A DNA stretch of 36,763 bases, taken from positions 1-36,763 of IMG/VR virus record IMGVR_UViG_3300027734_000164; one strand, 5' to 3'. Position 1 is the stretch's first letter; every line of letters begins with the position of its first letter. The notes under the pieces are model-generated. The model was not told the origin of the DNA. It saw only the letters and a program-made list of their open reading frames with translations, and ran no database searches. Source of the DNA: a virus (Duplodnaviria; Caudoviricetes). Made by a program: the position numbers and the translations under genes. Shown here piece after piece: positions 2,607 to 35,186 of this stretch.

Positions 2607-3494
2607 TTATTGGTCACAACTTACACACAAGGGCTTCTTATGCTCCTCTGGGACAATCATTGGAGTTGTGTTCTGCCACTTAATCAAATGATGAATCCTG
2701 GGGTTGCTGGTGTTCATCATTGAAATCCTAACACTGGATGGGTGCATCATCACCGTGGTGAAAGCCTTGCAGTATGTTCCAAACCTCAGATACATATCAG
2801 TTATACCGTTTTTCTGGCTCTGGGTAGCTGTTTGAACCAGGCTAATCATGGGAATAGTGCCAAATAGCACTCCCCTGGAGCCCAAGGTTACGTACGTATT
2901 TACGTCCTCATTCATTGCACCAATAAACTGGAATGGCCTATCTGTTGAGCAAATAAAAGAGTTCATACATTTTCTGATGAGAGGCTTCTTGGTTGCATAC
3001 TTATTTTCAACACCACCAATGAAGTCCCCGCCTTGGGCAAATGCCATGCTTGAGAATCCTGTTTCCTTGTAGAACTCAAGGTAAAGGCCAAGCACAGCAT
3101 CCAGGTTGGATACATAGTGAACCTTCAGCTTCTCACCACACCTGCTCACATACCTGTATTCAAATGATATGTAGTCATCGTCCAGTTCCATGAAGTATTT
3201 TATGCCAAGGTCTTTGGCTATTTTGAAACAGGCATTCCTGGCATGGGTGATTGTCCTTCTTTCATCGAAGTTGTTTCCCTCATCAACCTGGTCTGCCATC
3301 TCTTTCTTATTAAATACAACCACTCTGTCCTTGCCAAAGTTGGCAATGTATTTGTCCAGGGTCTTGTCCTCATTATCAACAACCAGGTAAAGCCTTCCAG
3401 TATAACCAGCATCTTTCAGTGTAGCCATGGTCTTTACATTGGTTGGCCTACCATGGGTTAGGATGAATATGGCAAAATCACTCTGCGTGCTCAA
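2607..3494 (-). CDS. TAGT/GREB1-like GT-A glycosyltransferase (putative DNA base modification)
   Basis: FILTHGR, ARNACF, ELDDDY, KCMNSF and NEDV motifs. Confidence 0.75.
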   Translation of the reverse strand: MSTQSDFAIFILTHGRPTNVKTMATLKDAGYTGRLYLVVDNEDKTLDKYIANFGKDRVVVFNKKEMADQVDEGNNFDERRTITHARNACFKIAKDLGIKYFMELDDDYISFEYRYVSRCGEKLKVHYVSNLDAVLGLYLEFYKETGFSSMAFAQGGDFIGGVENKYATKKPLIRKCMNSFICSTDRPFQFIGAMNEDVNTYVTLGSRGVLFGTIPMISLVQTATQSQKNGITDMYLRFGTYCKAFTTVMMHPSSVRISMMNTSNPRIHHLIKWQNTTPMIVPEEHKKPLCVSCDQ

Positions 3495-20068: not shown

Positions 20069-20746
20069 TTATACAATAACAAGGCCATCAAAGTGATGAA
20101 TGTTATCTTGAACAAACTCATTTCTTTGACCATATAGCCTAGTTTCCTTTCCAAGCCTAACTGCCGAAGCAACTACTGCTGGGCTTGAGTTGATGCAAAT
20201 AAATTCCTTGGCATCCCTTATGGCTTTTGCCATGTCTGCAATGGTTGGTGCCGTATAGGTTCTGATGCCATGGATTTGATGGGAGCCTGGTGGGCATAAA
20301 ATTATTGTATTATCTGTGCCTAATTCACTTACTACATCTTGAATAATCTCAATGGGATTCCTTCTATCTCCCTGGCTTACACCAAAAGGTGCAATAAGAT
20401 TAAACTCTTCTGGAAGCCCTTCTGCTGGTGATTTGTCCAAATTATCTAAAATAATGCTTGTTCTGTCTGCATCCTTAATGGAATGATGAGAATACACAAA
20501 GTCATGCCATGGCTTTCTTGATTTCCTGTATTCCTCATATCTTGAAGGCCAAACCTCTAGGTCAATTGTAAGTCCTTGTCTATGGCCGGCCTTCACATAA
20601 GAAACCATTTCAAAGACACCATGATATTGGGCAAAGCAATCAAAGAACACCTCGTGCCCTTGGTCTGCCAAATACTTGCAAGCTGGAAGGCATCTAAGCA
20701 CATCCCCAAGTCTCTGGCTATATTTTATAGTTCTAGGCTGTATCAT
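20069..20746 (-). CDS. GT9 (heptosyltransferase)-like GT-B glycosyltransferase
   Basis: RLGDVLRCLPA N-terminus; IAPFG; FICINSSPAVVASA. Confidence 0.75.
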   Translation of the reverse strand: MIQPRTIKYSQRLGDVLRCLPACKYLADQGHEVFFDCFAQYHGVFEMVSYVKAGHRQGLTIDLEVWPSRYEEYRKSRKPWHDFVYSHHSIKDADRTSIILDNLDKSPAEGLPEEFNLIAPFGVSQGDRRNPIEIIQDVVSELGTDNTIILCPPGSHQIHGIRTYTAPTIADMAKAIRDAKEFICINSSPAVVASAVRLGKETRLYGQRNEFVQDNIHHFDGLVIV

Positions 20747-21503
20747 CAACAACACTCCTGTCTGCTACAAATGGCATATAATCTGCAAGCCTTACCGGCC
20801 CCTTGGTTTCTTGTAGCTTTTCCCATCCTTCAACAAGCCCCTTATATCCATAGAAATCTTCCTTAAACTGCACCTGTTCCCTGGTGAAATAGGCAAAGTG
20901 GTCAAAGGTTAGCCCCCAAGCCTCAGTCATTCCCCTGGGAATCATTAGTCCATTCACATTTAGTTTGGGTGGCTCATGGCTAACAAACTCAATGCCATTT
21001 CCCCACTTCCAAGCTCTAAACCATTCATACCAGTTGGAGCCAAAACCCTCCTTGGTCACAACCTTTTTGTTCTTCCCAACATAGTAATTACAATGAAACT
21101 GCATTGCCATGCCTTCCTCACATCCCTTCAAATGCCCATAGATTGCATCAAGCTGGTCTGCCCTCCAGATTTCATCAGCATCAACTTCCATAACCACACC
21201 TTTTTCCACACCACTCAAAGCCTCTTTAATCATGGCCAGCTTTCCTGGGAATGACTTGGCTTGCCAATAAACCGAAACATTTGGTTCGTTAATGCTATTT
21301 AGATATTCGTGCGTTCCGTCCACGCTCATAAAGTTCTTGTGATATTTGTCTGGAACTTGCTTGCACCAGCGGGTGCATCCTAGGGGTTCTGAAACTCCCT
21401 CGACAATACGCCATTGCCAAGGAATCTTTAGCTTCTTGAACTCATCAAGATGCCTATTTATGTAAGGCATCCCATTGAGAACGATGGTAAAGATTGTCAG
21501 CAC
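20733..21503 (-). CDS. GT-A (GT2-like) glycosyltransferase
   Basis: IVLNGMPYI, SVDGTHEYL, EVDADEIW (DxD). Confidence 0.85.
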   Translation of the reverse strand: MLTIFTIVLNGMPYINRHLDEFKKLKIPWQWRIVEGVSEPLGCTRWCKQVPDKYHKNFMSVDGTHEYLNSINEPNVSVYWQAKSFPGKLAMIKEALSGVEKGVVMEVDADEIWRADQLDAIYGHLKGCEEGMAMQFHCNYYVGKNKKVVTKEGFGSNWYEWFRAWKWGNGIEFVSHEPPKLNVNGLMIPRGMTEAWGLTFDHFAYFTREQVQFKEDFYGYKGLVEGWEKLQETKGPVRLADYMPFVADRSVVDDTA

Positions 21504-22108
21504 AATTCAAAAATGGCGGCTCCGTTCCGCACCGACCAATCCTCCCAAAGCAATTTGGAGAATCCTTTTAGTTTATGATAGTTTGTCCAGTTCTTAATGT
21601 CGTTTGTATCGTCCAAGGCAATGATTGAATTATGTGGCAAGAATGGTCTTACACACCTAAGTTCTGCTTCACCAGAGAATGGTGAACCATCAATAAGCAC
21701 AAAGTTGAAATGAACATTGTGATCAAAGTGAATGTCCTCAATGGCATTGGTTTGATATGGTTTGGCAGTTTCCATACACTCATCATGCCATCCCAAAACC
21801 TGCTCAAGTGGGTATGCATTTAGATTAGTTTTTGTGGTTCTGTAAAATTCCTCTACATCAGCATTGTTCATCCACATATTTGAAACAACTGCTGTGCCTT
21901 GCACTGATACTCCACCCCTTGCCTCCAGGTTCATCCTGTGACGGCCAATGCGATCTGGATGGTTTTCAATAGAGAAAAGCTTTTTAGTTCTGATGCATTG
22001 GGTGGAGCCATCTCCAGTTCCACCACCAATCTCCAAGCCAACATCCAGGCCATAGCTATACCTTGCTAATGCCCTGCCAAATGAATCTTCAAAGCTTACT
22101 TCTTTCAT
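21497..22108 (-). CDS. Class I SAM-dependent methyltransferase-like protein
   Basis: LEIGGGTGDGST motif I; SIE; VLIDG; ALDD. Confidence 0.75.
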   Translation of the reverse strand: MKEVSFEDSFGRALARYSYGLDVGLEIGGGTGDGSTQCIRTKKLFSIENHPDRIGRHRMNLEARGGVSVQGTAVVSNMWMNNADVEEFYRTTKTNLNAYPLEQVLGWHDECMETAKPYQTNAIEDIHFDHNVHFNFVLIDGSPFSGEAELRCVRPFLPHNSIIALDDTNDIKNWTNYHKLKGFSKLLWEDWSVRNGAAIFELC

Positions 22109-22110
22109 AT

Positions 22111-23766
22111 TTATGCCCAGTTGCTTGCCTTCCTTCTGTCGTAGATGGCTTTACCTTTCTCATAAAATTCTGGTTTGTTGTGGTGGACAAGTTGCTGGTC
22201 TGCTTCTTTCCCAGTGTGGATTGGGTTCTCATGAACAAACTTCAAGTCCTTTGCCTCAATAACAACTTGGTCGGCATAAGCTCTTTCTGTGAACTCGTTA
22301 TCGGAATACAGCCCATCTGACTGCTGGTAGTCTGGATGGAATAGCCATCCACCCTGGGTCTCAAGCCTCTTTTTGTTTAGAATGGCCATGCAGAGTAGCT
22401 TGTCTGACCTATAGCCATCTGATACTGCCAAGACTTGATCGGTGGTTTTAGAGCCAATTAAAGAGCAAATAGAGGCATCCCAGTGTCTTGGTGGAGCCCA
22501 ATCATCGGACATCTGCACAATGATGTCTGAATTGGCCAGTTTTGCCCCCTGGTTCCAGGCATTGATAATGCCACCAGGATTGCATCTAATAGCCTGGTGT
22601 GGGGTGTAATCAATGGGGTCATCATGATCTACCATGAAAAGCCACTCAACCTCCATGGGTTTTTCAGCCGCTGAAAGCCACTGGAACCTTCTTTGCCATG
22701 CCAATTGTTGCCTTCCCCTGGTTGCATGAACAATGGTGATTCTGGGGGCTGGCTTTAGCTTTTTCATCTTGGCAACCTCATCAGCCTTCCCAACACAAGC
22801 TGAAGCAGTCTCATATAAGTCCATTGATTGCCAGCCATAGATTGCCTCAACCTGGTTCCAGTAGTGTGAGGATGGCCTGGGTAGGCTCATGGCCGCCCTG
22901 GCTGAACCCCAAGCCTTAATCCATTGCCCTCTGCCAGCATACTCCAATGCTGTCCAGTAGTGTGCCTCTCTTCTGTCTGGCTGGAGTGTAATTGCCTGTC
23001 CAAGATATTTCAGCCTGTTCTCTGGCTTTGCACATCTGCCCATATTGCAAAGAACATCGTATCTTAAAGTGTCATCAAGATCTTTGAACATTAAGGCCAT
23101 TTCACCAAACTCCAGGCACTTCTCAAAGTTCATTGAAAGAAAGTATTCTTGCTGGGTATAATAAAGAGAATTTGGGGCTGGCTCCAGGGTGTCTTTTAAG
23201 ATTGTAAGATTTCTGTCTGCTGAAGTCTTTTTGTATCCATGGGGCTTGTGAATCCTAACCACTTTATCCACCCCAAAAAGCTTATCTGGCTCATTGGCAA
23301 CTAAAGCCTCGTGAACCCTATTCTTCCACTTGCACTTGCCCTTTCTGCTGGCCATTTCCCTCAATGGTATAAGACCAGCATTTTGGACATCGTATCTGAA
23401 TGCAATTAAATCTGCCCCTCTTTTATTGGCTTCTTCAATGGCATTATCTACCAGGGCTTCTGCTCCTGGTTGCATTACATCATCAGCATCTACCCACAAA
23501 GCCCATTCATTTTTGCAAGCCTCCAGGGCTGTATTCCTGGCAGAGGCAAAGTCATCTATATGATTCCAATCAGAGTTTTTATTTTTATAATGAACAATTC
23601 TAGCACCGTGAGCCAATGCAATCTCTTCTGTTTTATCTGCCTCAAGGTTCCCTCTAGAGATGCAAACAATAAACTCTTCTGCCATGGGCTTAAATGACTC
23701 CAGGCACCTGGCAATGTAGGCTTCCTCATTTCCAGAAATTAAATAGACTGAAAGCTTGTGTTTCAT
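22111..23766 (-). CDS. GT2-TPR-GT2 double glycosyltransferase
   Basis: NEEAYIARCLES, DFASARN, WVDADD, RVHE; TPR-like helices; second GT-A domain HATRGR, QMSDD, YSDNEF. Confidence 0.9.
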   Translation of the reverse strand: MKHKLSVYLISGNEEAYIARCLESFKPMAEEFIVCISRGNLEADKTEEIALAHGARIVHYKNKNSDWNHIDDFASARNTALEACKNEWALWVDADDVMQPGAEALVDNAIEEANKRGADLIAFRYDVQNAGLIPLREMASRKGKCKWKNRVHEALVANEPDKLFGVDKVVRIHKPHGYKKTSADRNLTILKDTLEPAPNSLYYTQQEYFLSMNFEKCLEFGEMALMFKDLDDTLRYDVLCNMGRCAKPENRLKYLGQAITLQPDRREAHYWTALEYAGRGQWIKAWGSARAAMSLPRPSSHYWNQVEAIYGWQSMDLYETASACVGKADEVAKMKKLKPAPRITIVHATRGRQQLAWQRRFQWLSAAEKPMEVEWLFMVDHDDPIDYTPHQAIRCNPGGIINAWNQGAKLANSDIIVQMSDDWAPPRHWDASICSLIGSKTTDQVLAVSDGYRSDKLLCMAILNKKRLETQGGWLFHPDYQQSDGLYSDNEFTERAYADQVVIEAKDLKFVHENPIHTGKEADQQLVHHNKPEFYEKGKAIYDRRKASNWA

Positions 23767-23795
23767 TGAGGATTTCAAGAGTGGTTATTTTTAGG

Positions 23796-26292: not shown

Positions 26293-27258
26293 TTAGGCGA
26301 AGCTTGTGGTGATGCGGACGGCCGCATTAGCATCAATCAGTTTCTCACTGGTGTTCATGCGAACACGGAGAACGTTGCTACGGCGGGCTTCATCACGATA
26401 GCTTTCAGAAACAAAACCACCAGGGGCATCAGCCGACCACACCAGGGTGCGACCAATTCCACCAGCAGTGAACTGACCACTCTGCACATTGGCAACAATG
26501 ATCTGCGTGTTGGGAACAATGAACCCACCAGAGTAGCTCTTGTTCTTGTTAGCAGAGTTGATTGCGGCCCGACCAACCAAAACCCGCTCCACCCCAAGGG
26601 CGGCGGCAATTTCGGCTTCACTCAGCAGACGGCCCTTGGTGTCAGAAACAACACCAAAGAACTGGTTCTGGAGTTTAGTTGTGCGGCGGATACGCTCAAA
26701 CACAGGGGCAGACATGATGATCGTGTTGGCTTCATAACCAAGTTTATTCAACTCAGTGCGAGCACCAGCAACGTCACCAGCTACATCAATGTTGGAAAGA
26801 TTCGCATTGGTGTAGGCAGAGATTGCACTCTGGTCAGCAGTTGTGAATGGGGTAGTTCCAGCAAACAGAATATCGCTTACACGCTTCTCATGGCCAAGTT
26901 TAATTTGGCGAAGGAGGAAGCGGGCAGACGATGCTTCGAGATCAAAAAACCTGTCAGCATCTGCGCGGAAACCATCATCAATTAGCTCTTCGAGGCCATA
27001 TTCGATCGTGTCGTAGGTGTCAGTGCCAAATGCACGAACAGCACGAGCGTAATCAGAAGCGGCCGCGCGGGGCTTAGAATCATTGTTCAACAGATCAGCC
27101 TGGGCAAGCTGAACTTTGAGATATTGTCCGCTCTTGGCAGGGACGGGAAGCAAAGGAAGAACCTCTGCTCCGATCAAGCCAGTCTCGGTGTTGGGAGCCT
27201 CGATCAACGCCTGGTTGATATCGGCCCGAATGGTTGTGCCACCAGAAATAAAACTCAT
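26293..27258 (-). CDS. Major capsid protein (HK97 fold)
   Basis: 321 aa, after protease and cement genes; ANTIIMS, LGVERVLVG; distinct codon usage; followed by a terminator. Confidence 0.88.
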   Translation of the reverse strand: MSFISGGTTIRADINQALIEAPNTETGLIGAEVLPLLPVPAKSGQYLKVQLAQADLLNNDSKPRAAASDYARAVRAFGTDTYDTIEYGLEELIDDGFRADADRFFDLEASSARFLLRQIKLGHEKRVSDILFAGTTPFTTADQSAISAYTNANLSNIDVAGDVAGARTELNKLGYEANTIIMSAPVFERIRRTTKLQNQFFGVVSDTKGRLLSEAEIAAALGVERVLVGRAAINSANKNKSYSGGFIVPNTQIIVANVQSGQFTAGGIGRTLVWSADAPGGFVSESYRDEARRSNVLRVRMNTSEKLIDANAAVRITTSFA

Positions 27259-27286: not shown

Positions 27287-27649
27287 TTAGAACATTGGCA
27301 CTGCAATTTCAATCACAGCAGAAGTCGCAGTAGCGGCTTCCAGGGCGATTCCAGCAGTAACAAGGTTTGCCGCTAGAGTGGTAACTTGGCCAGCGGCATC
27401 GAATTTCATCACATCACCCACAGCGGCCACGCCACTCACGGTTGCGAAGAAGGTAGGATGGAACAGCTTCACGGTCACATAACCATTAGCCGCCACATCT
27501 TCAAGGGTTGAACCAATAGCTTTGGTCGCACCAGTTACAGCCACATCAACGCCACCAGCAGTGACGGTAGAAGGCTGAACCATGCGATAAGCAGAGATAG
27601 CGGACGATGTTGAGAAAGTCCGATACCCATTATCAATTTGCGTGCTCAT
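27287..27649 (-). CDS. Capsid cement/decoration protein (DUF2190-like)
   Basis: AAVGDVMKFDAAGQV...GIALEAATATSAVIEI. Confidence 0.8.
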   Translation of the reverse strand: MSTQIDNGYRTFSTSSAISAYRMVQPSTVTAGGVDVAVTGATKAIGSTLEDVAANGYVTVKLFHPTFFATVSGVAAVGDVMKFDAAGQVTTLAANLVTAGIALEAATATSAVIEIAVPMF

Positions 27650-27666
27650 TTCTATTTATCCTTTTG

Positions 27667-28092
27667 TTAGATGTTCTTAATGCCGCGGCTAAGAGCCTCA
27701 GCATATTCTTTTGGGTTGGAAAGCATGACGGCCTTCATGGCCTTCAGCTTCGAAGTCTTGTATTCCGAATGACCAGAAACAAGCTCTTCAAAGTTCTTTG
27801 GCTCCTCTTTCTTTTCAAGGGCAACCTCAACAGCAGGAGACGCAGGAATGGGCTTGATGCCAAACTGGGTAAGAACTTTCTTCACCACTTCACTCATTGC
27901 CTCTTCTTGCTTTTCCTCTTCAACAGATTCACCTTCAGCTTTTGCGCCATCTGCAACTGCCTTATCTTCCACAACAGCTTGCTCATCCACAGGCACTTCA
28001 GCCATCTTTTCATTTTTGGGTTTCATCGAATCTTCAATGGCCGCTAGGCGAACCTTGATATCCTCGATATCTTTAGAATAATTGTTTTCCAT
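27667..28092 (-). CDS. Nested in-frame scaffolding protein (Nu3-like, 141 aa)
   Basis: TTGACA-AAAGAAGGAGAAACA-ATG at internal MENNYSK. Confidence 0.7.
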   Translation of the reverse strand: MENNYSKDIEDIKVRLAAIEDSMKPKNEKMAEVPVDEQAVVEDKAVADGAKAEGESVEEEKQEEAMSEVVKKVLTQFGIKPIPASPAVEVALEKKEEPKNFEELVSGHSEYKTSKLKAMKAVMLSNPKEYAEALSRGIKNI

Positions 28093-28854
28093 TGTTTCTC
28101 CTTCTTTTGTCAAACCATCACCTTCAACAACTGCATTGGGCAGATCGACGGGGATTGGCTTACCTCCGGCCATATAGCCGAGTTTCTTTTCTGCTTTTAC
28201 GCAAGAACCAGATTCATAGGGCTTAACTCCCTTTGCTGGCTTATAACCATCCCAGCATCTAAATTCTTTAACCTTTTCCATAAACTTGACTATTTCCTCA
28301 AACAATCCATTAGTTGCCGCAGGGCTGGAAACCAGGTCAGCAGAGGCAATGCTCTGGGGTCTGATATAGTCCTTGCCATTGATTGACTCACTCTCATTCA
28401 CAAATGCCAGGGAGATTCCAAACTGGTCTGGAGCCTCATCTGCCATCTCTTTAATCAATCCATAATGTTGGCTACTCTTCAAAAGCTTTAGGTCTGCAAC
28501 TAGTTTATTGCCATCAATCCTGGCATTCTTTGCAAAGCCAACGACTGCGTCCAATCCAGAACCGTGGTTCATCTTAACCTTAACCCCATTGGGAGCCTTG
28601 TTCATTATCTCCATAGCCTTCTCAAGGCTTACCTTGTCCACAAATAAATCGTGCCCCTTGGCCTCGCCAATCTCTAGAATGCTTACCCCGCCAAAATCAC
28701 CAGACTCCATTTCCTCTTCATCCCTGTAAGTGCTGTAGGCCACGGCCGCCCTTTGAGTCTCATCTGGGAACTTGCTTATTGCTTCCTCATCTCCCATGAA
28801 TCGAGAAACAAAGTCCTGTTCGGACTCATCACCACTAGGTAGGGGCAGGGGCAT
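27667..28854 (-). CDS. Prohead protease fused to scaffold
   Basis: GEAKGHDLFVD, KMNH, FGISL, SADLVSSPAATNGLF; acidic helical C-terminus; start moved to MPLPLP. Confidence 0.8.
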   Translation of the reverse strand: MPLPLPSGDESEQDFVSRFMGDEEAISKFPDETQRAAVAYSTYRDEEEMESGDFGGVSILEIGEAKGHDLFVDKVSLEKAMEIMNKAPNGVKVKMNHGSGLDAVVGFAKNARIDGNKLVADLKLLKSSQHYGLIKEMADEAPDQFGISLAFVNESESINGKDYIRPQSIASADLVSSPAATNGLFEEIVKFMEKVKEFRCWDGYKPAKGVKPYESGSCVKAEKKLGYMAGGKPIPVDLPNAVVEGDGLTKEGETMENNYSKDIEDIKVRLAAIEDSMKPKNEKMAEVPVDEQAVVEDKAVADGAKAEGESVEEEKQEEAMSEVVKKVLTQFGIKPIPASPAVEVALEKKEEPKNFEELVSGHSEYKTSKLKAMKAVMLSNPKEYAEALSRGIKNI

Positions 28855-28884
28855 AAAAGCCCACATTATGTCAAAGCCCAAAGC

Positions 28885-29145
28885 CTAATAGACTGCGTCT
28901 TCTTTTGCTTTTTCTTCTTCTGTATCTGATACTTCTACTATTTCTGCCCCATACTTATCTAACTGCATTGCTAGGTATTTACCAAAGAAGCCATCTGACG
29001 GCCCATAATTTTTAATAGCCCGATCATATACTGAGTTTATAAGCTTAATAATTTGATCATATTTAGAATCAATTGAAATACCCTCATCATCTATGGTTAT
29101 CAATGTTTTCTCATCATCATAAAAAATAGCAAAAATTTTGATCAT
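28885..29145 (-). CDS. Small acidic protein, candidate immunity partner
   Basis: 86 aa, AT-rich, 8 nt after the peptidase-bearing portal gene. Confidence 0.6.
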   Translation of the reverse strand: MIKIFAIFYDDEKTLITIDDEGISIDSKYDQIIKLINSVYDRAIKNYGPSDGFFGKYLAMQLDKYGAEIVEVSDTEEEKAKEDAVY

Positions 29146-29153
29146 AATAGTTA

Positions 29154-32100
29154 TTATTCTATTCCCCTTGTTTTCTTTAGCAATCTTCCAGTTGCAATTC
29201 CAGTAACTAGATCAAACCACTCTGGATCAACCTTGGCAAACTTTGCTGGGTTCCTGTGAAGCAATTCCATTCCCATGGAATAAACTTCTGTTGCTCCAAT
29301 ATACTTTGAACTTGCTCCAAATGGTTGATCATCATATCTCTTGCCAGTATAATATGCACGGTTATTTGTATCAAATTCTGGAAAAAGTTCTGCGTGAGCC
29401 TTTCCAAATCCATCTGCTGAACCCTTCTCATATCTTTTGTAGCCGTAGCCTGGCATTGTCTTTTGGAACTTTTGAATCTTTTCACCAGCAGTTCTCTTAT
29501 TAAGAAATTCCGTGCAAAGGTCTTTTGCTTCTGCATTTCCATCTTCAATTTGATGCCCATATTCATGCATATAGGTTTTTGTCGGTGTCTCTATACTAAC
29601 CCTTATTCCACCACCTGTTGAATTTCTTGTTCCATCTACAAACTGCACTATTGTTGCAGTTGAATCTGCTCTTTTCTCATTCCAATATGTAACCGGTCTT
29701 GTTAGTGATTCAGTGTGAATGTTTGGATTGCATATCTCTCTTAGTGCTCCTTGTGCCTCATCTCTTCTTTCCTTAACATATTGAATGGTGCTATCTTTTA
29801 TAGATTTACGATCATTAACAATTGCTGATTGTTGTTTTTCTTTTAGCTCTTGAGTTGCCTTTGCTAATTGCTCTGGTGAGAATCCATCCTGTTTATTTAC
29901 GGCCAGCATATCTTTTTTGATTTCAGAAAATCCAATTTGCCTGGCTTTTTCGTTTTCTGTTTTTATTTTCTTTTCTTGCTCTTCAATGTTTTGCTCTAGT
30001 TTGTTAATTTTTGCGTATTCAACATCTAGGGTTTTTTGTGTTTCAAGATAATTCTTTACATCTTTTGCTTCTCTATATTGCACGGCCTTGTCTCTTAGGG
30101 GTCTTGCTTTTGCCCTAAGTTCCTCTAATTGTTTTTGTGATTCAGTAATATTATTTTTTGCAGAATCTATTTCTTTTAGTGTATCTTCTGACTTCTTGAT
30201 AACTGCTTGTCTTACTGAATCAAGTTCCTTTTGATTGCCTTTAATGGCTGATTCGAGAGATGCCCTTTCCTTGCTGTCATAGTCCTTTTTTGAGTTTGGA
30301 AATTTAGACTTCTTTTCATCTGTTGGCTTTTTCCCACCAGGTGGAGGAAGTGGTGGTGGGGGTGGTGGAAGTGGTGGCTTAGGCTTTGTTCCTGTTGGTG
30401 TTGGCTTTACTGGTGTTGGCTTAACTGGCTTGGGTGGAATCTTTCCACCTGGGCGTTTTGGCTTATAGCCACCAACAAGTTTTGGCCTTCCATAGCCATT
30501 TGCACAGCTATTCTCATCATCAAAAGTTCCATCATCCTTCATTCCACACGGGTTAAGATTTGCTTCTGCAACAAATTCTGTTGTCTCTTGTGGCTCTGAA
30601 AGGTTCTTGTCCCTTGACTCCATCTGGCCAACCACTTTCTTTGCCCAGGAATAGCCAGCATCACCACCCCATCCATTCCAGGCTTGCCAGCCCTTGCCCT
30701 GCTCATCCCAGGTTTCACCCTTCTTATCGACTTCATGGCGATCAAAGAATGCCTTCATTCTGCGGATTGTATCTGGGGAGAACTTGACCCCATTGATCAA
30801 ATCCCGCGCCCTGGCTATGCCTACAGCTGTCATTCCCTTTTGGCTGGCTGATTTCCCTTCCCTTACATCCAAAGCCCTTTTAGCGGCCTCACTGGCTCCC
30901 TGTGGTGGGGTAAAATCAATACCATCATACTTGCCTAACTCAATCCCACCCATCATCCCAGCAATGAGCATTTTAAGCTCTTGCTTGTTTAGGCTAGCTA
31001 GTGCTTGTTGAGTTTCTTTTTTTTTATCTGTAATTGGCCCGCCAACAATCCAGGCATCGCAGGTTCTTTTAGCCGCACATTTGAAATCAAAAATTTCACA
31101 ATATCCAAGGTCTCCACCAAGTGCCACCTCATTTGCATCTTCACCAATTCCATTTTTAATGCAACCCAGTAGCTTGCTGGTCTGATTGAATGCGGCGCAA
31201 TTACCACAAAGCATTTTCTTTGCTGTTGCAACATCACCCTGGAACTCATTGGCCTTTGCCTCCCAGTAGTCCTCATTTGGTTCATTTGGATTGGCTGGCC
31301 CGTAGTTAGCTTTATCAACTGCTGTCTGTCTGTTCTCTAAATTAAGCTTTATATCTTGAGTTGGTAGTGGGCATTTTAATTCTTCCAGGCCTGTTGGAGG
31401 AACTGGGGCTTTTGGTATTTCTGGAACTGGAGCTCCTCCCTGGCCTTCATCCTTTTGACCATCCTGGGCGGCTTGTTTTTCTTTTTCTGTGGTTGGAATG
31501 ATTTTTCCAGACTGCACACCAGCAACAATTCCGATGGCCTGTTCCCTTGAAATAGTTGGGAATGCGGCTGTGATAACTGAAACTGCACCCTCCTTGGACA
31601 ATGCACCAGCCGCAACTGCATTGATAACATTGATAAGAGAGGCAACCTGGGCTCCATTGAGGCTCTGGCCAATAACATCCTCTTGCCCTGCCACTGGCTG
31701 ACCATCTTGGGTTGTTTGCCCTGGTTGGCCTTGTTGCACTGGCTGGCCTGTAGGAAGCAGAATTTCAGAAACTGCCTGGGCTGGAACTCCATATTCCTTT
31801 GCCAGGTCTTGAATCATCTTGGTCTCAATGGCTCTTGCCCTAAAGGCGGCCTCAACATCCATACCCCTTTCGGAGTAAATATCTGAAGCAGTTCTCAGTC
31901 CAGCCTTGAACTCTGCAATAGCTGATGCCGACTCCCGTCCAAGGTCGATAGATACATTGGCTCCAAAGTTAAAAAAGCCCTTGGTTGTTTTGGCTCCATT
32001 CCCACTGATCATTCCCCTGGCTACAGCATCAGCAATAACAATGTTCTTGATTGGGCTAAGAACCTTATCATTGAGAAGCTTCTGGTATCTGTTGAAGGTT

Positions 32101-33191
32101 CTTCCAGCCTGTTGCATTTCAAGCCTGGCTGTGGGGCCGGACATGGCAGATGGGTCGACAGCAAAGGAGTATGGGATTCCAAGTCCCATGCAAATGTTTC
32201 TCAGCAAAATTTTATGGAACTCTGCAAAGGCTCCACTGGGTCTGCTGGGGCCGTCTGGGAAAATAATGTCCTCTCCAGGCTCAAGATAACTAACCTTTCC
32301 AGATTCCATTGATTCCAACTTAATTTGTTGATTATCAAAGTTTTCTTCTGTGGTTAATGCACTAAGGTCAGAGGCATTGTTGTTCGACCTCTTCACAACT
32401 GCGCTCTGTGAACTGGCAACCTTTGCGGCCAGTTTTTCAAAGTTCACAATGTCATAAATATCAGTGGCATCATTGATGGCTGTATGAAAAGCAGACACAC
32501 CTCTGTATTGGTCAATCCTAAGTGGGTCAAAGTAGTGGAATGCCTGGCTTGCTGGAATAGTTGCCTGGTATGTATAAAAATCTCCAATGCTACGATTATA
32601 AATATCATAAGCAGTAGGAGCACCAGTTCCCCTATCAATGTGAATACCGCCAATAAGCTCCAAGCTTGTATAAGTTTTGTAAGGGTCGCCGAGTCTATCA
32701 GATTCAATTCCCTGGAGCCTCAAGTCTCCATCTTTATCTCTGACCAATACAAAAAGAAAATCTCCATCTCGGAGCATGGACATGGTTGCAACCTGCATAA
32801 GGGTTGAGCCTGTATGTCTGGTTGATAGGTCACAATTCTCAAACCACTGATTCCAATAGGCTTCAATTTCAGTATTTACCTTGGGCTTATCTGTCCTGGC
32901 CTGGTATGTGATATTTGATGCAACATGGCTTGCAAACTTCATCAAGATGGAGCGAACAAGGCCATTGTTTTCAGCCAGGTCTCTTGCCCTCTTCATCAGT
33001 TCTACACGATCATAATTTGATCTATAGTCCTCTGCACCAGATAGATTGCTCGGCCCACGCCTTTCCCTGGTGTATTTTACTGCATCATATTCAAACTTTG
33101 TAAGGGCTTTTTTAGCCATCAGCCTTTGAACCCCTGCCTGGGGATTTACAAACGAAACAAGCTTGTCCAGGAATGTCTGCTTAAGCTTCAT
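29154..33191 (-). CDS. Lambda-family portal protein with about 865-aa multi-domain extension ending in a zincin peptidase
   Basis: RARDLAENN, LRDGD, RIDQYRGVS, LEPGEDI portal motifs in the first about 480 aa; HEYGH and ATEVYSMG near the C-terminus. Confidence 0.9.
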   Translation of the reverse strand: MKLKQTFLDKLVSFVNPQAGVQRLMAKKALTKFEYDAVKYTRERRGPSNLSGAEDYRSNYDRVELMKRARDLAENNGLVRSILMKFASHVASNITYQARTDKPKVNTEIEAYWNQWFENCDLSTRHTGSTLMQVATMSMLRDGDFLFVLVRDKDGDLRLQGIESDRLGDPYKTYTSLELIGGIHIDRGTGAPTAYDIYNRSIGDFYTYQATIPASQAFHYFDPLRIDQYRGVSAFHTAINDATDIYDIVNFEKLAAKVASSQSAVVKRSNNNASDLSALTTEENFDNQQIKLESMESGKVSYLEPGEDIIFPDGPSRPSGAFAEFHKILLRNICMGLGIPYSFAVDPSAMSGPTARLEMQQAGRTFNRYQKLLNDKVLSPIKNIVIADAVARGMISGNGAKTTKGFFNFGANVSIDLGRESASAIAEFKAGLRTASDIYSERGMDVEAAFRARAIETKMIQDLAKEYGVPAQAVSEILLPTGQPVQQGQPGQTTQDGQPVAGQEDVIGQSLNGAQVASLINVINAVAAGALSKEGAVSVITAAFPTISREQAIGIVAGVQSGKIIPTTEKEKQAAQDGQKDEGQGGAPVPEIPKAPVPPTGLEELKCPLPTQDIKLNLENRQTAVDKANYGPANPNEPNEDYWEAKANEFQGDVATAKKMLCGNCAAFNQTSKLLGCIKNGIGEDANEVALGGDLGYCEIFDFKCAAKRTCDAWIVGGPITDKKKETQQALASLNKQELKMLIAGMMGGIELGKYDGIDFTPPQGASEAAKRALDVREGKSASQKGMTAVGIARARDLINGVKFSPDTIRRMKAFFDRHEVDKKGETWDEQGKGWQAWNGWGGDAGYSWAKKVVGQMESRDKNLSEPQETTEFVAEANLNPCGMKDDGTFDDENSCANGYGRPKLVGGYKPKRPGGKIPPKPVKPTPVKPTPTGTKPKPPLPPPPPPLPPPGGKKPTDEKKSKFPNSKKDYDSKERASLESAIKGNQKELDSVRQAVIKKSEDTLKEIDSAKNNITESQKQLEELRAKARPLRDKAVQYREAKDVKNYLETQKTLDVEYAKINKLEQNIEEQEKKIKTENEKARQIGFSEIKKDMLAVNKQDGFSPEQLAKATQELKEKQQSAIVNDRKSIKDSTIQYVKERRDEAQGALREICNPNIHTESLTRPVTYWNEKRADSTATIVQFVDGTRNSTGGGIRVSIETPTKTYMHEYGHQIEDGNAEAKDLCTEFLNKRTAGEKIQKFQKTMPGYGYKRYEKGSADGFGKAHAELFPEFDTNNRAYYTGKRYDDQPFGASSKYIGATEVYSMGMELLHRNPAKFAKVDPEWFDLVTGIATGRLLKKTRGIE

Positions 33192-33424
33192 GGGCCGAAT
33201 TTTGCATAGGTGGTTCTGATTCTTGTGCCAGATGCAGATTGAATTGCAATAGTCAATTCTGCAATAATCTCTCTCACCTCAGATAGATTGGCTCTGCTGA
33301 ATGATCTTCCAGCAATAGAATAACTTGCACCTGCCACCGCAATTGCCTCCAAGCAAGTAATATACTTATCACGCAGGGAATTTAAGGTGGCAATGGGCAA
33401 ACCAATAAAATCACCCTTCGCCAT
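33188..33424 (-). CDS. Head completion protein (gpW-like)
   Basis: GASYSIAGRSFSRANLSEV; between terL and portal. Confidence 0.85.
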   Translation of the reverse strand: MAKGDFIGLPIATLNSLRDKYITCLEAIAVAGASYSIAGRSFSRANLSEVREIIAELTIAIQSASGTRIRTTYAKFGP

Positions 33425-35186
33425 GTTCAATCTCCTCTGTCAAGCCTGCGGGCATGATCTTCAGCCTCTTATGTAAGGCCGCACCCACAACGGCCATGCA
33501 TTCACAATCAAGTAAGTGGTTATGCTTGCCTATCTGCTTCCACACCCTCCTGGTTCTTCCTGTCATTGGGTTCTTAACCTCAACCTTGGTTTCAGATGAG
33601 ATGTGAACTTTCCAGACTTCTGGTGTGTCCTCTGCAATGAAGCCGTCTGTTTTTAGAAGGTTTGCCAAGATGTCCTTGATTGCTGGGTTTGACCACCTCC
33701 AAACTGGGCAAAGCTTCCATTTCCAGCCTTCCCTAGAGCCAACATTCTTACCACTGAATGGGTCTCCATTTGCAATTCTGGCATAAGGTCTTTGAACTCT
33801 TTGCTCACCCACAATCTCTGAAAAACTTGATCTATCTGAACCAACCAGGGCAATAAAGCCCCATTGGCAACAATGCAAATAAACATCACGAGTCTGGTCA
33901 CCAGAATCAATGAACACTGCTTTAGGCTCAACATTGAACTCATCTGCCTTGGCTTTGATGTCTCCCCAGGTTTCAAGCCTTCCAGCCCATACCAATCTGC
34001 TTTTGCCGTCCATATCCCAAGCCCTCACAACACACCAAGCATGGAAGCCGCCGGCCTCTTGAATATCACAGGCCATGACAAGCTTTTCACCCATGTTCAC
34101 TTCCCCAAGTTTATATTTACCTGGGACAATCTCCACCCTCTCTTGGTCGTGCTCCATCCATGGCTCTGCAAGAACCCTGTTCACAAAGTCCTGTAGCCCT
34201 ATGATTCCACTATGCTTATCTTGTAAGAACTTAACTGCAAGGCTTCCAAAGGTTACCCATGGTGGATATAGGCCATTCAAATGATACGACCTTCTGCCTG
34301 GTTCACCCTTGGGGTTGGTTGGCCTCCACTCACCATCCCTCAGCATCATTGTTTTGTGGCCATCCCTAATTGGCTTCTGGCAGTTTTCACATTCATAATA
34401 GGCTGAATTTTTCACAATCCCAAAATCATAGACACCATCTTCCAGCTTTGCCTTTTCATCCCACTTCACCCTCTCCCAAATAAGTTTTTGTTTGTGGCCG
34501 CAATGGGGGCATGGAACAAAGAAAAACCTCATATCTCCCTTTTGCCACTCTGCCCAGATGATTGAATCTGCTGTGGTTGGTGTGCTGGTAGAAACAACCA
34601 GGTGATTTGGATAGGTTGCAACCCTGGCTTCTGCCAACTGCAATGCCCCAGCTTCTTTTGAGTTTGTGCCGTCAGAAAATTTATCAACCTCATCGAGCAT
34701 CAAAAGTGAAACCGACCTAGAGGAAAGATTGGCTGGGCTGTTTGAGCCCACAAACCAAAGGCTCATCTTTCTGAAGTGCTGTTCGAGTATCTTTATTTTG
34801 TCTGTATTCTCTGGCTTTTCCTTTGCCAGCACAGGGCAATCATCCACCATTGGCAACCACCTGGTTTCAGAGAATGATCTTGCCAGTGCTTCAGATGGCA
34901 TTACCCAAAGTGCTGGGCATGGTTCAACTGCCAGCCTGTAGGAAAGCCCCGCAAGAATTGTGGTTGTCTTGGATGTCTGGGCTCCCCACACCAGGGTAAT
35001 TCTTCTCACAGAATCATTCCCAAAAGCCTCCAGTGGCTCCCTCACATAGGGTGTAAGATTGGTGCTATAGGGGCCGGGTATGTTTGTGATTCTTGGTGAA
35101 AGAACCAGGCTCTGCTCACACCATTCTGAAATTGATAATTGCTTCTTGGGAATCAAGAAGCTCTTCATGAAAGGAACAAGCTTCAT
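33411..35186 (-). CDS. terL: Terminase large subunit, GpA family
   Basis: TPYVREP, GAQTSKTT Walker A, LMLDEVD Walker B, STPT, VPCPHCG, NHLLDC. Confidence 0.96.
   Translation of the reverse strand: MKLVPFMKSFLIPKKQLSISEWCEQSLVLSPRITNIPGPYSTNLTPYVREPLEAFGNDSVRRITLVWGAQTSKTTTILAGLSYRLAVEPCPALWVMPSEALARSFSETRWLPMVDDCPVLAKEKPENTDKIKILEQHFRKMSLWFVGSNSPANLSSRSVSLLMLDEVDKFSDGTNSKEAGALQLAEARVATYPNHLVVSTSTPTTADSIIWAEWQKGDMRFFFVPCPHCGHKQKLIWERVKWDEKAKLEDGVYDFGIVKNSAYYECENCQKPIRDGHKTMMLRDGEWRPTNPKGEPGRRSYHLNGLYPPWVTFGSLAVKFLQDKHSGIIGLQDFVNRVLAEPWMEHDQERVEIVPGKYKLGEVNMGEKLVMACDIQEAGGFHAWCVVRAWDMDGKSRLVWAGRLETWGDIKAKADEFNVEPKAVFIDSGDQTRDVYLHCCQWGFIALVGSDRSSFSEIVGEQRVQRPYARIANGDPFSGKNVGSREGWKWKLCPVWRWSNPAIKDILANLLKTDGFIAEDTPEVWKVHISSETKVEVKNPMTGRTRRVWKQIGKHNHLLDCECMAVVGAALHKRLKIMPAGLTEEIEHGEG

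Follow-up and report, generated by a model that had tools for sequence, protein, structure and literature searches.

The portal protein of a freshwater phage carries an exchangeable zincin cassette with a paired small gene: a candidate MuF-like toxin-immunity locus with no detected MuF domain

Among the systems in which phage head proteins carry toxic enzymes are the MuF polymorphic toxins; in a set of 191 of them a metallopeptidase was found in 20% and a small downstream open reading frame (ORF) in 89% (Jamet et al., 2017; PMC5576092). Toxin-immunity pairs of this class have been tested, and the passages concerned describe their biological role as unknown or little known (PMC11699363, PMC12226406). 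Other enzymatic domains (PBECR, 2H, InPase, Nudix and ART) have been noted as fusions to portal proteins (Iyer et al., 2017, 2022; PMC5512222, PMC9503650), and the corresponding passages of PMC3482391 and PMC7824862 add nothing on portal carriers. In phage T4, the prohead protease sets head proteins free, which are then ejected and refold (PMC9026906), and the portal of SPN3US is cut at a protease motif (PMC10052503), as far as the relevant passages tell. The present analysis deals with positions 1 to 36,763 of the IMG/VR virus record IMGVR_UViG_3300027734_000164 (the window, 36,763 nucleotides (nt) long), in which a portal gene runs on into a C-terminal metallopeptidase, here called tip A, and is followed by a gene for a small partner protein.

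The portal bears a string of modules and ends in a zinc-protease cassette; close relatives exchange this cassette along with the small partner gene. With a probability of about 0.65, we read the cassette as a zincin effector that is loaded by the portal, released by the maturation protease, injected, and held inactive by its partner in the producing cell. Judged by its sequence, the cassette is of the MuF toxin-immunity kind, carried here by a portal, and the same tip-partner pair sits on MuF proteins elsewhere; the locus would work like a MuF polymorphic toxin yet stands outside that class, no MuF domain having been found.

The ORF at 29154..33191 (minus strand) encodes 1345 amino acids (aa) with zero internal stops, in agreement with the first-pass annotation, which had described a lambda-type portal running without a stop into an extension of about 865 aa. 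The portal core matches Pfam Phage_portal_2 (PF05136) at aa 56-370 (E 3e-56, 191.6 bits against a cut-off of 32.9), and the match to PHROG 21 spans aa 5-495; the TIGR01539 score, 129.6, lies below the equivalog cut-off of 172.7. Beyond this core, the 865-aa extension terminates in an HExxH...E zincin, and the 86-aa ORF (28885..29145, minus strand), small and acidic as had been noted, begins 8 nt past the portal stop. Most details of that annotation hold: the glutamate of ATEVYSMG is that of the TEV triplet, E1302; the Pro/Lys-rich linker occupies aa 910-955 (30464..30327 in coding direction); and the distal part is indeed AT-rich, with a GC content of 0.338 in the coiled coil, 0.388 in the tip and 0.314 in the partner, against 0.446 in the portal core (at third codon positions, 0.43 in the core against 0.25 and 0.24 in the AT-rich distal parts). 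The HEYGH motif is present at aa 1209-1213, and only its coordinates, 29567..29553, differ by one base from the earlier figure. The parts of the locus are as follows.

31758..33191, minus strand: lambda-type portal core (aa 1-478), with PF05136 and PHROG 21 matches, located between the terminase large subunit (TerL)/head-tail adaptor and the protease/major capsid protein (MCP)
31494..31670, minus strand: module A (about aa 508-566), found in most related portals, function unassigned
31023..31373, minus strand: module B (aa 607-723), Cys-rich, optional and shifting in position among relatives, no significant family
30609..30932, minus strand: module C (aa 754-861), phrog_2859 at E 1e-20, a widespread head-protein module also found on prohead proteases
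30570..30581, minus strand: predicted prohead-protease site T-E-F|V (aa 871-874) ahead of the tip cassette, from signature statistics, cleavage inferred
aa 750-753 and, in looser form, aa 603-606, minus strand: further predicted protease sites on the same grounds
30504..30548, minus strand: two-cysteine CG motif (aa 882-896), which opens each variable cassette
30327..30464, minus strand: Pro/Lys-rich linker (aa 910-955), from the sequence
29772..30305, minus strand: coiled-coil stalk (about aa 963-1140), which goes along with tip A; weak SMC-like match at aa 963-1150, E 0.24
29157..29771, minus strand: zincin metallopeptidase tip A (aa 1141-1345; HEYGH 1209-1213, E1302), from invariant residues, an AF2 model, fold matches and PHROG 19443 (minor head protein)
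28885..29145, minus strand: 86-aa cognate partner, a predicted active-site inhibitor (immunity protein), from co-occurrence, profile and predicted complex

The fusion was checked at the level of contigs. Positions 28063-33500 are covered, with one difference, by a single contig of 8702 nt from run X1 (which may be the source run), and positions 27600-31517 by a contig from a different study (run X4); the same portal-to-tip fusion occurs in 13 of 52 IMG/VR portal loci, some of which are repeat assemblies of one phage. A chimeric assembly or a missed stop, a possibility raised with the first-pass annotation, is ruled out by these fusion loci and by the contigs of separate assemblies that span the fusion.

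The 52 loci were gathered by the portal core alone (74-100% identity, repeat assemblies included), and their portals end in tip B (18), tip A (13), module D without a tip (9), a JAB-like tip (1) or other tips (2), the remaining nine being cut by a contig end. When reduced to 69 distinct closed pairs of portal and next gene, a set in which zincin A is over-represented since it was searched for, the distribution is zincin A 20, zincin B 20, ART-like 4, JAB-like 1, other 2 and no tip 22. Five or more tip types are borne by portals that are 68-100% identical, which is the variable C-terminal enzyme that characterizes MuF toxins. Different tips sit on portal cores that are identical over aa 1-470 (L009 against L014; L041 against L045), a quick tree of the portals requires 12 tip changes where the least possible number is four, and modules B and D are gained, lost and reordered among related portals. 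The idea that tips and downstream small genes vary as pairs is borne out by these data, as portals that are nearly identical end in different tips and the small gene changes with the tip. One of the ART-like tips (L141) matches Pfam ADPrib_exo_Tox at E 7e-5, which is below the cut-off, and two others (L138, L151) gave no Pfam match in a scan that left out L152; the JAB label of the L016 tip is our assumption from its motif and not the outcome of a search.

The CG motif opens every closed tip in the 52 portals, as well as internal inserts. The same motif is found up to seven times in giant polyvalent proteins (P0058, P0092, P0098, P0026), often before ART-PolyVal; no family name was found for it, and it could be a packaging or ejection tag. 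Module C, in turn, is estimated to occur in about 7500 IMG/VR stretches, and its carriers (L153-L181, L093 and L098 among them) are portals, Mu-like proteases and S78 proteases, often together with module D. In the PHROG scan of the extension, the matches were phrog_2859 at aa 754-861 and 'minor head protein' at aa 1198-1311; modules A, B and D gave no useful family match (the stretch holding module A had none in PHROG, and D is weakly similar to DUF5824). The extension is a multi-module chain whose modules A-D have no assigned activity.

The tip itself has the features of a gluzincin-type zincin. In an alignment of 24 tips that share 27-95% identity, H1209, E1210, H1213 and E1302 never vary, and the AF2 model of the tip (pLDDT 90) places the HExxH on one helix (64-78) and the downstream glutamate on a second one (163-173). 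The best fold matches of this model in VIA are all zincins, namely PPEP-3 (Z 8.2, root-mean-square deviation (rmsd) 3.1, 131 residues aligned), the catalytic domain of lethal factor (Z 7.8, rmsd 3.3, 137 aligned) and PPEP-2 (Z 7.6, rmsd 3.1, 124 aligned); at 8-12% identity and moderate scores, this is a likeness of fold that confers no specificity. A Foldseek search of the PDB with the tip gave nothing under E 0.001, Pfam ATLF did not match tip A, and the tip profile matched PDB sequences only in coiled coils, because the alignment from which it was made (A2, 443 positions) retained stalk columns. With the same profile, 1637 matches were obtained at 1e-10, a total that may include matches driven by the stalk or the CG motif, and HExxH is present in 145 of the 146 new proteins listed from the search. 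The family is widespread and nearly always C-terminal, and its stand-alone carriers have a stretch similar to the stalk.

The likeness to PPEP-3 and PPEP-2, together with the polyproline linker ahead of the stalk, raises the question of whether the zincin is a self-processing or maturation enzyme that cuts this linker or head proteins, with the partner as a brake and the host not attacked. The predicted complex described below, in which a conserved proline of the partner would be offered to the zinc site, could be taken in the same sense, and autoproteolysis has been proposed for the metallopeptidases of polyvalent proteins in the part of Iyer et al. (2017; PMC5512222) that deals with them. 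A maturation enzyme would hardly be expected to be lacking in 22 of 69 portals or to be replaceable by ART-like and JAB-like domains, as this tip is; moreover, the linkers of the stand-alone carriers are Gly-rich and not Pro-rich, and Pro-rich linkers also precede other tips. We regard this explanation as improbable.

The small gene follows the tip closely. Among the 69 distinct pairs, tip A is followed by partner A in 20 of 20 cases and portals that lack a tip never have a partner (0 of 22), while tip B is followed in 20 of 20 by an acidic peptide of about 35 aa fused to modules and each of the four ART-like tips has its own peptide. In 14 loci, the identity of the partner correlates with that of the tip (Spearman 0.81, partial 0.80) and not with that of the portal (0.25, partial 0.17). 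Partner-profile matches lie directly downstream of tip A in 84 of 84 loci, which are redundant, and the Y-[GS]-P loop and the terminal tyrosine are retained down to 20% identity. No family match was found for the partner in the collections searched, Pfam and PHROG among them, nor any Atlas match, and its best fold match in VIA reaches Z 4.9, with no BFVD match under E 0.001, which is no proof of a new fold.

The co-folding proposed with the first-pass annotation gave a predicted complex of tip A and partner with a score of 0.83, the best of three controls scoring 0.00; the mark applied to this score is reached by 116 of 157 solved pairs and by 2 of 215 mismatched ones. Two of three runs reached the mark, agreeing in at least 30% of contacts, with a partner pLDDT of at least 73. 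The predicted interface joins the zinc ligands and catalytic glutamate (H1209, E1210, H1213, E1302) to partner residues 44-57 and 82-86, and the YGPSDG loop of the partner is placed on the zinc site. The prediction thus supports binding between tip and partner, and the pairing (20/20), the co-divergence and the predicted active-site complex together correspond to the small cognate downstream ORF of MuF toxins. A short loop that passes through the active-site cleft would also be substrate-like, and this, with the lack of a match to any described immunity family, would suit a small protein that serves the protease as substrate, adaptor or co-packaged chaperone instead of acting as an immunity protein. 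We rank that explanation last in probability, given a partner that is small, acidic, always directly downstream and co-diverging with the tip; the MuF immunity proteins with such traits that were tested block the active site, according to the passages on them (PMC11699363).

Whether the locus is a MuF toxin in disguise was addressed with two kinds of search, and a cryptic MuF domain was found by neither. Pfam MuF does not match the portal ORF or 51 window ORFs, and a profile of 35 MuF domains gave a best E of 0.19 over the six frames of the window, the same profile detecting L106 and L108 at E<1e-30; the MuF3 and MuF4 models of Jamet lay outside these searches. Other carriers of the cassette do have it: of the 146 listed tip relatives, the 113 scanned with Pfam (400-2700 aa) include 35 with a MuF domain and eight with a portal, of four families, and the 35-domain profile adds four more MuF carriers, none of them among the eight. 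Further carriers of the tip-partner pair are an HK97-type portal (L093), genes of their own that lie between portal and protease (L094-L096, L101) and MuF proteins (L106-L108), and the cultured Flavobacterium phage pippi8-1 has a portal, a MuF-tip protein and a 70-aa partner homolog (E 8e-4). Tip relatives bear ART-PolyVal, 2H-like, InPase and LPD1 as well, and in P0026 ART-PolyVal and this tip are joined on a portal. With the partner profile, the small ORF of Lactococcus 62503 reached only E 0.24, which is no match, and downstream of the tip in Bacillus BboS-125 no ORF of 55 aa or more was found. The first-pass view of a portal-delivered polymorphic toxin system stands as regards the MuF domain, whose absence it had noted; its novelty is reduced in that the same cassette sits on MuF proteins and that other fusions of effectors to portals are already in print, as passages of PMC5512222 and PMC9503650 record.

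Some of these carriers deserve separate mention. In the cyanophage PaV-LD (L199, ORF081R/082R), the zincin forms the end of a protein whose gene precedes that of a weak 91-aa partner homolog ending in Tyr; ORF081R is annotated as 'virion structural protein', a label that could not be traced to data. Three loci (L183, L185:4690-7653 and L196) combine an HK97-type portal, modules, a C-terminal MuF and K-type junctions (described below), a possible intermediate between MuF and portal carriers. In L147:8391-13949, an 1853-aa protein consists of a MuF-like N-terminus, a long variable middle and a prohead protease-scaffold, with junctions after Glu.

Release of the cassette by the prohead protease had been suggested by the first-pass annotation, and the signatures agree with it: motifs resembling protease sites lie ahead of the modules. 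Of 72 distinct contexts in this portal family, 54 have the motif [EQN][LF][AGVD] no more than 16 aa from the start of a module (background 2-9%), and it is present in 14 of 16 new contexts and in none of 16 (one incomplete) from phages with other proteases. In those phages the residues differ: by eye, E-x-R stands ahead of cassettes in L093-L096 and again at their capsid and Peptidase_S78 junctions, and K stands ahead of cassettes in L101-L103 and L183/L185/L196 and at their capsid/protease junctions. Such capsid junctions are cleavage sites in HK97-type maturation. Several junctions have an arginine two residues ahead of the CG motif, perhaps a relic of the donor phage. The E-L/F module signature, which switches to E-x-R or K with other prohead proteases, is new here. 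Because the signatures precede modules and change with the type of protease, the extension is likely a polyprotein that is cut inside the prohead by the phage's own maturation protease. The neighbouring genes that bear on this are the following.

27667..28881, minus strand: probable prohead protease-scaffold, from position and the PHROG matches of homologs
26293..27258, minus strand: major capsid protein, PHROG 1005 at E 2e-32
33411..35186, minus strand: terminase large subunit, Pfam GpA_ATPase and GpA_nuclease

The gene order (TerL, adaptor, portal, partner, protease, decoration, MCP) is that of a head-morphogenesis module, in which MuF toxins also lie. The direct head-protease match of the 27667..28881 protein is weak (E 0.26); its homologs match the PHROG head maturation protease at E 0.0015-0.006 (those of 39% and 28% identity at E 0.0015 and 0.0027) and have invariant His and Ser. 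Profile-profile tests of this call were not significant, and neither was the control between S78 and Mu-like proteases. The true start of the gene is probably a later ATG that relatives use, and the junctions of its own domains show a similar D/E-F/L signature. Two modules can be told apart in it, one at the N-terminus and one, with CWxGY, in the interior, and in L143 the interior one is replaced by a CG cassette at such a junction site.

These signatures also bear on whether the cassette is delivered at all. Delivery is putative, the imported DNA is AT-rich, the downstream modules separate from the portal in zincin-B phages, and the biological role of MuF toxins is itself given as unknown in the passages at hand (PMC11699363); all this would be compatible with a toxin-antitoxin-like passenger of the late operon that acts in the producing cell, undelivered, against host defence or co-infecting phages, the fusion to the portal being incidental. 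Such a passenger is unlikely in our view, if slightly less so than a self-processing enzyme, for almost all carriers of the tip are head proteins (MuF, portals of four families, and products of genes located between portal and protease), the protease-type signatures agree with the head proteins of each phage, and a co-expressed inhibitor would silence the enzyme in the producer.

The proposal of a portal-loaded, injected effector can be laid out in steps. The C-terminal crown of a portal faces the capsid interior, and from portal anatomy it would follow that the C-terminus puts up to 12 copies of the cassette into the head without a MuF carrier. In the producing cell and through assembly, the YGPSDG loop of the partner, lying over the zinc ligands as modelled, would hold the enzyme off. 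Cuts after E-L/F at aa ~605, ~752 and ~873, as the signature suggests, would leave the portal core unencumbered for DNA packaging and set loose a CG-stalk-zincin piece of about 470 aa. By analogy with the T4 internal proteins, this piece may then unfold through the tail, lose its inhibitor and act early in infection, and its most likely target, again by analogy, would be host defence or the proteins of a rival phage in the newly infected host. A role in counter-defence early in infection is a better fit than one in competition between lysogens, because no integrase was found among the window ORFs scanned, which include every ORF >250 aa; a sequence search of genome contigs gave no prophage relative, nor a host.

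Several points weigh against this proposal. Activity, toxicity, cleavage and ejection are predictions, and the passage of a 50-kDa head protein through the short tail of a siphovirus would be a difficulty. As for the tip and its partner, the fold Z-scores near 8 are only moderate, the third complex run scored 0.00, a loop modelled in the active site fits a substrate equally well, and two portals with tips of other types (L045, L051) have no partner gene. As for release, the signature was selected after the first contexts had been inspected, and the contexts share descent; module B shows the strict form in only 3 of 14 cases (the loose form in 12 of 14, against a background of 23-28%); the gene at 27667..28881 is probably the prohead protease, a call that is indirect; and a cross-check on the major capsid protein is precluded here, as this protein lacks a propeptide.

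The arrangement of the other tips suggests a wider, more tentative idea. Module D is in the portal in none of the 25 portals with tip B, ART-like or JAB-like ends, and in 23 of these 25 (20 zincin-B, the JAB-like and two ART-like) the remaining modules lie in the next gene, behind the tip-specific peptide. L094 and L103 share a metallopeptidase and, behind it, one and the same short peptide, which a protease-type site joins to the next toxin cassette. These tandems (L094:4012-6586, L103:738-7893) lie between portal and protease, with a metallopeptidase gene or a portal tip first, and their second gene consists of the short peptide, a protease-type site, the CG motif and tip A, after which the partner follows. 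The portal might, by its sequence organization, be a general cargo-loading polyprotein whose cassettes comprise a protease site, the CG motif and an effector. Where a cassette introduces a stop codon, the next gene would open with the inhibitor peptide of that effector, fused to the modules left over or to the next toxin, and binding of the peptide would re-attach these, so that several effectors are daisy-chained into the head ahead of cutting by the prohead protease; we think this somewhat doubtful. If the tip-specific peptides bind their tips, the next protein would be tethered into the head, and tip A, the only tip for which a complex was predicted, would close the chain, its partner ending in a conserved tyrosine and never being extended.

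As for the remainder of the genome, the window is an apparently complete circular phage genome from freshwater metagenomes, with 10 nt common to both ends and relatives of 36-38 kb; the tape-measure-like ORF has 471 aa, and the phage resembles a short-tailed siphovirus. A TET-associated glycosyltransferase at 2607..3494 (Pfam TAGT, E 3e-34) points to possible hypermodification of DNA bases, and no TET/JBP gene was recognised in the window ORFs scanned. A GT2 glycosyltransferase and three unannotated genes occupy 20069..23778 within the head-tail region, possibly for virion glycosylation. In one sub-clade (L084, L088, L148), a 125-aa DUF5856 gene is inserted between portal or partner and protease.

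Portals are regarded as being among the most constrained virion proteins, and here the tail of one is a recombination hot spot for enzymes and their predicted inhibitors, with the swapping taking place in a single abundant population of freshwater phages. Should the extension indeed be cut and ejected, each head could be loaded with up to 12 effector copies by a route that does not depend on MuF; the packaging and delivery of MuF-type toxins would become testable, as one cultured phage has the same cassette, small protease inhibitors without any database match would be recognised as a family, and the specificity of maturation proteases could be read from module junctions. The head modules B, C and D and the CG motif would then be candidate early counter-defence proteins. 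The literature consulted describes neither a portal-borne polymorphic toxin-inhibitor locus nor a portal polyprotein delimited by protease sites; figures and supplements (e.g., Figures 4-5 of Iyer et al., 2017) may show portal-metallopeptidase architectures.

Compared with known systems, the nearest structural neighbours of the tip A model belong to the PPEP/anthrax-lethal-factor zincin fold, from which it departs in its low identity, the missing Pfam ATLF match and a large insert between motifs. Phage polyvalent proteins are multi-domain, virion-packaged proteins with zincin metallopeptidase hubs (PMC5512222, PMC9503650), which the multi-module chain described here may parallel; the passages on them and on portal-fused effectors give no portal-metallopeptidase fusion, cognate inhibitor genes, tip swapping in one portal population or maturation-protease sites between modules. 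The internal proteins of T4, with their capsid-targeting sequences, and the heads of SPN3US and phiKZ resemble what is proposed here in that head proteins, including the portal, are cut by the prohead protease at a short motif and then ejected (PMC9026906, PMC10052503). The parts removed there, according to those passages, are N-terminal propeptides of separate proteins, whereas the cargo here would be a C-terminal polyprotein of the portal with paired inhibitors. The MuF polymorphic toxins differ in their carrier, reported at 1-3 copies per head in the passages concerned and replaced here by a 12-copy portal; in having no such series of modules between carrier and tip, nor the lack of a MuF domain seen here; and in their tie to temperate phages, as opposed to a window with no integrase found. 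They are nonetheless the closest parallel, for they share a head-module gene after or at the portal, a variable C-terminal enzyme and a small downstream ORF (PMC5576092; Zhang et al., 2012, PMC3482391; Bxa, Apk2), and the identical tip and partner families are present on MuF carriers.

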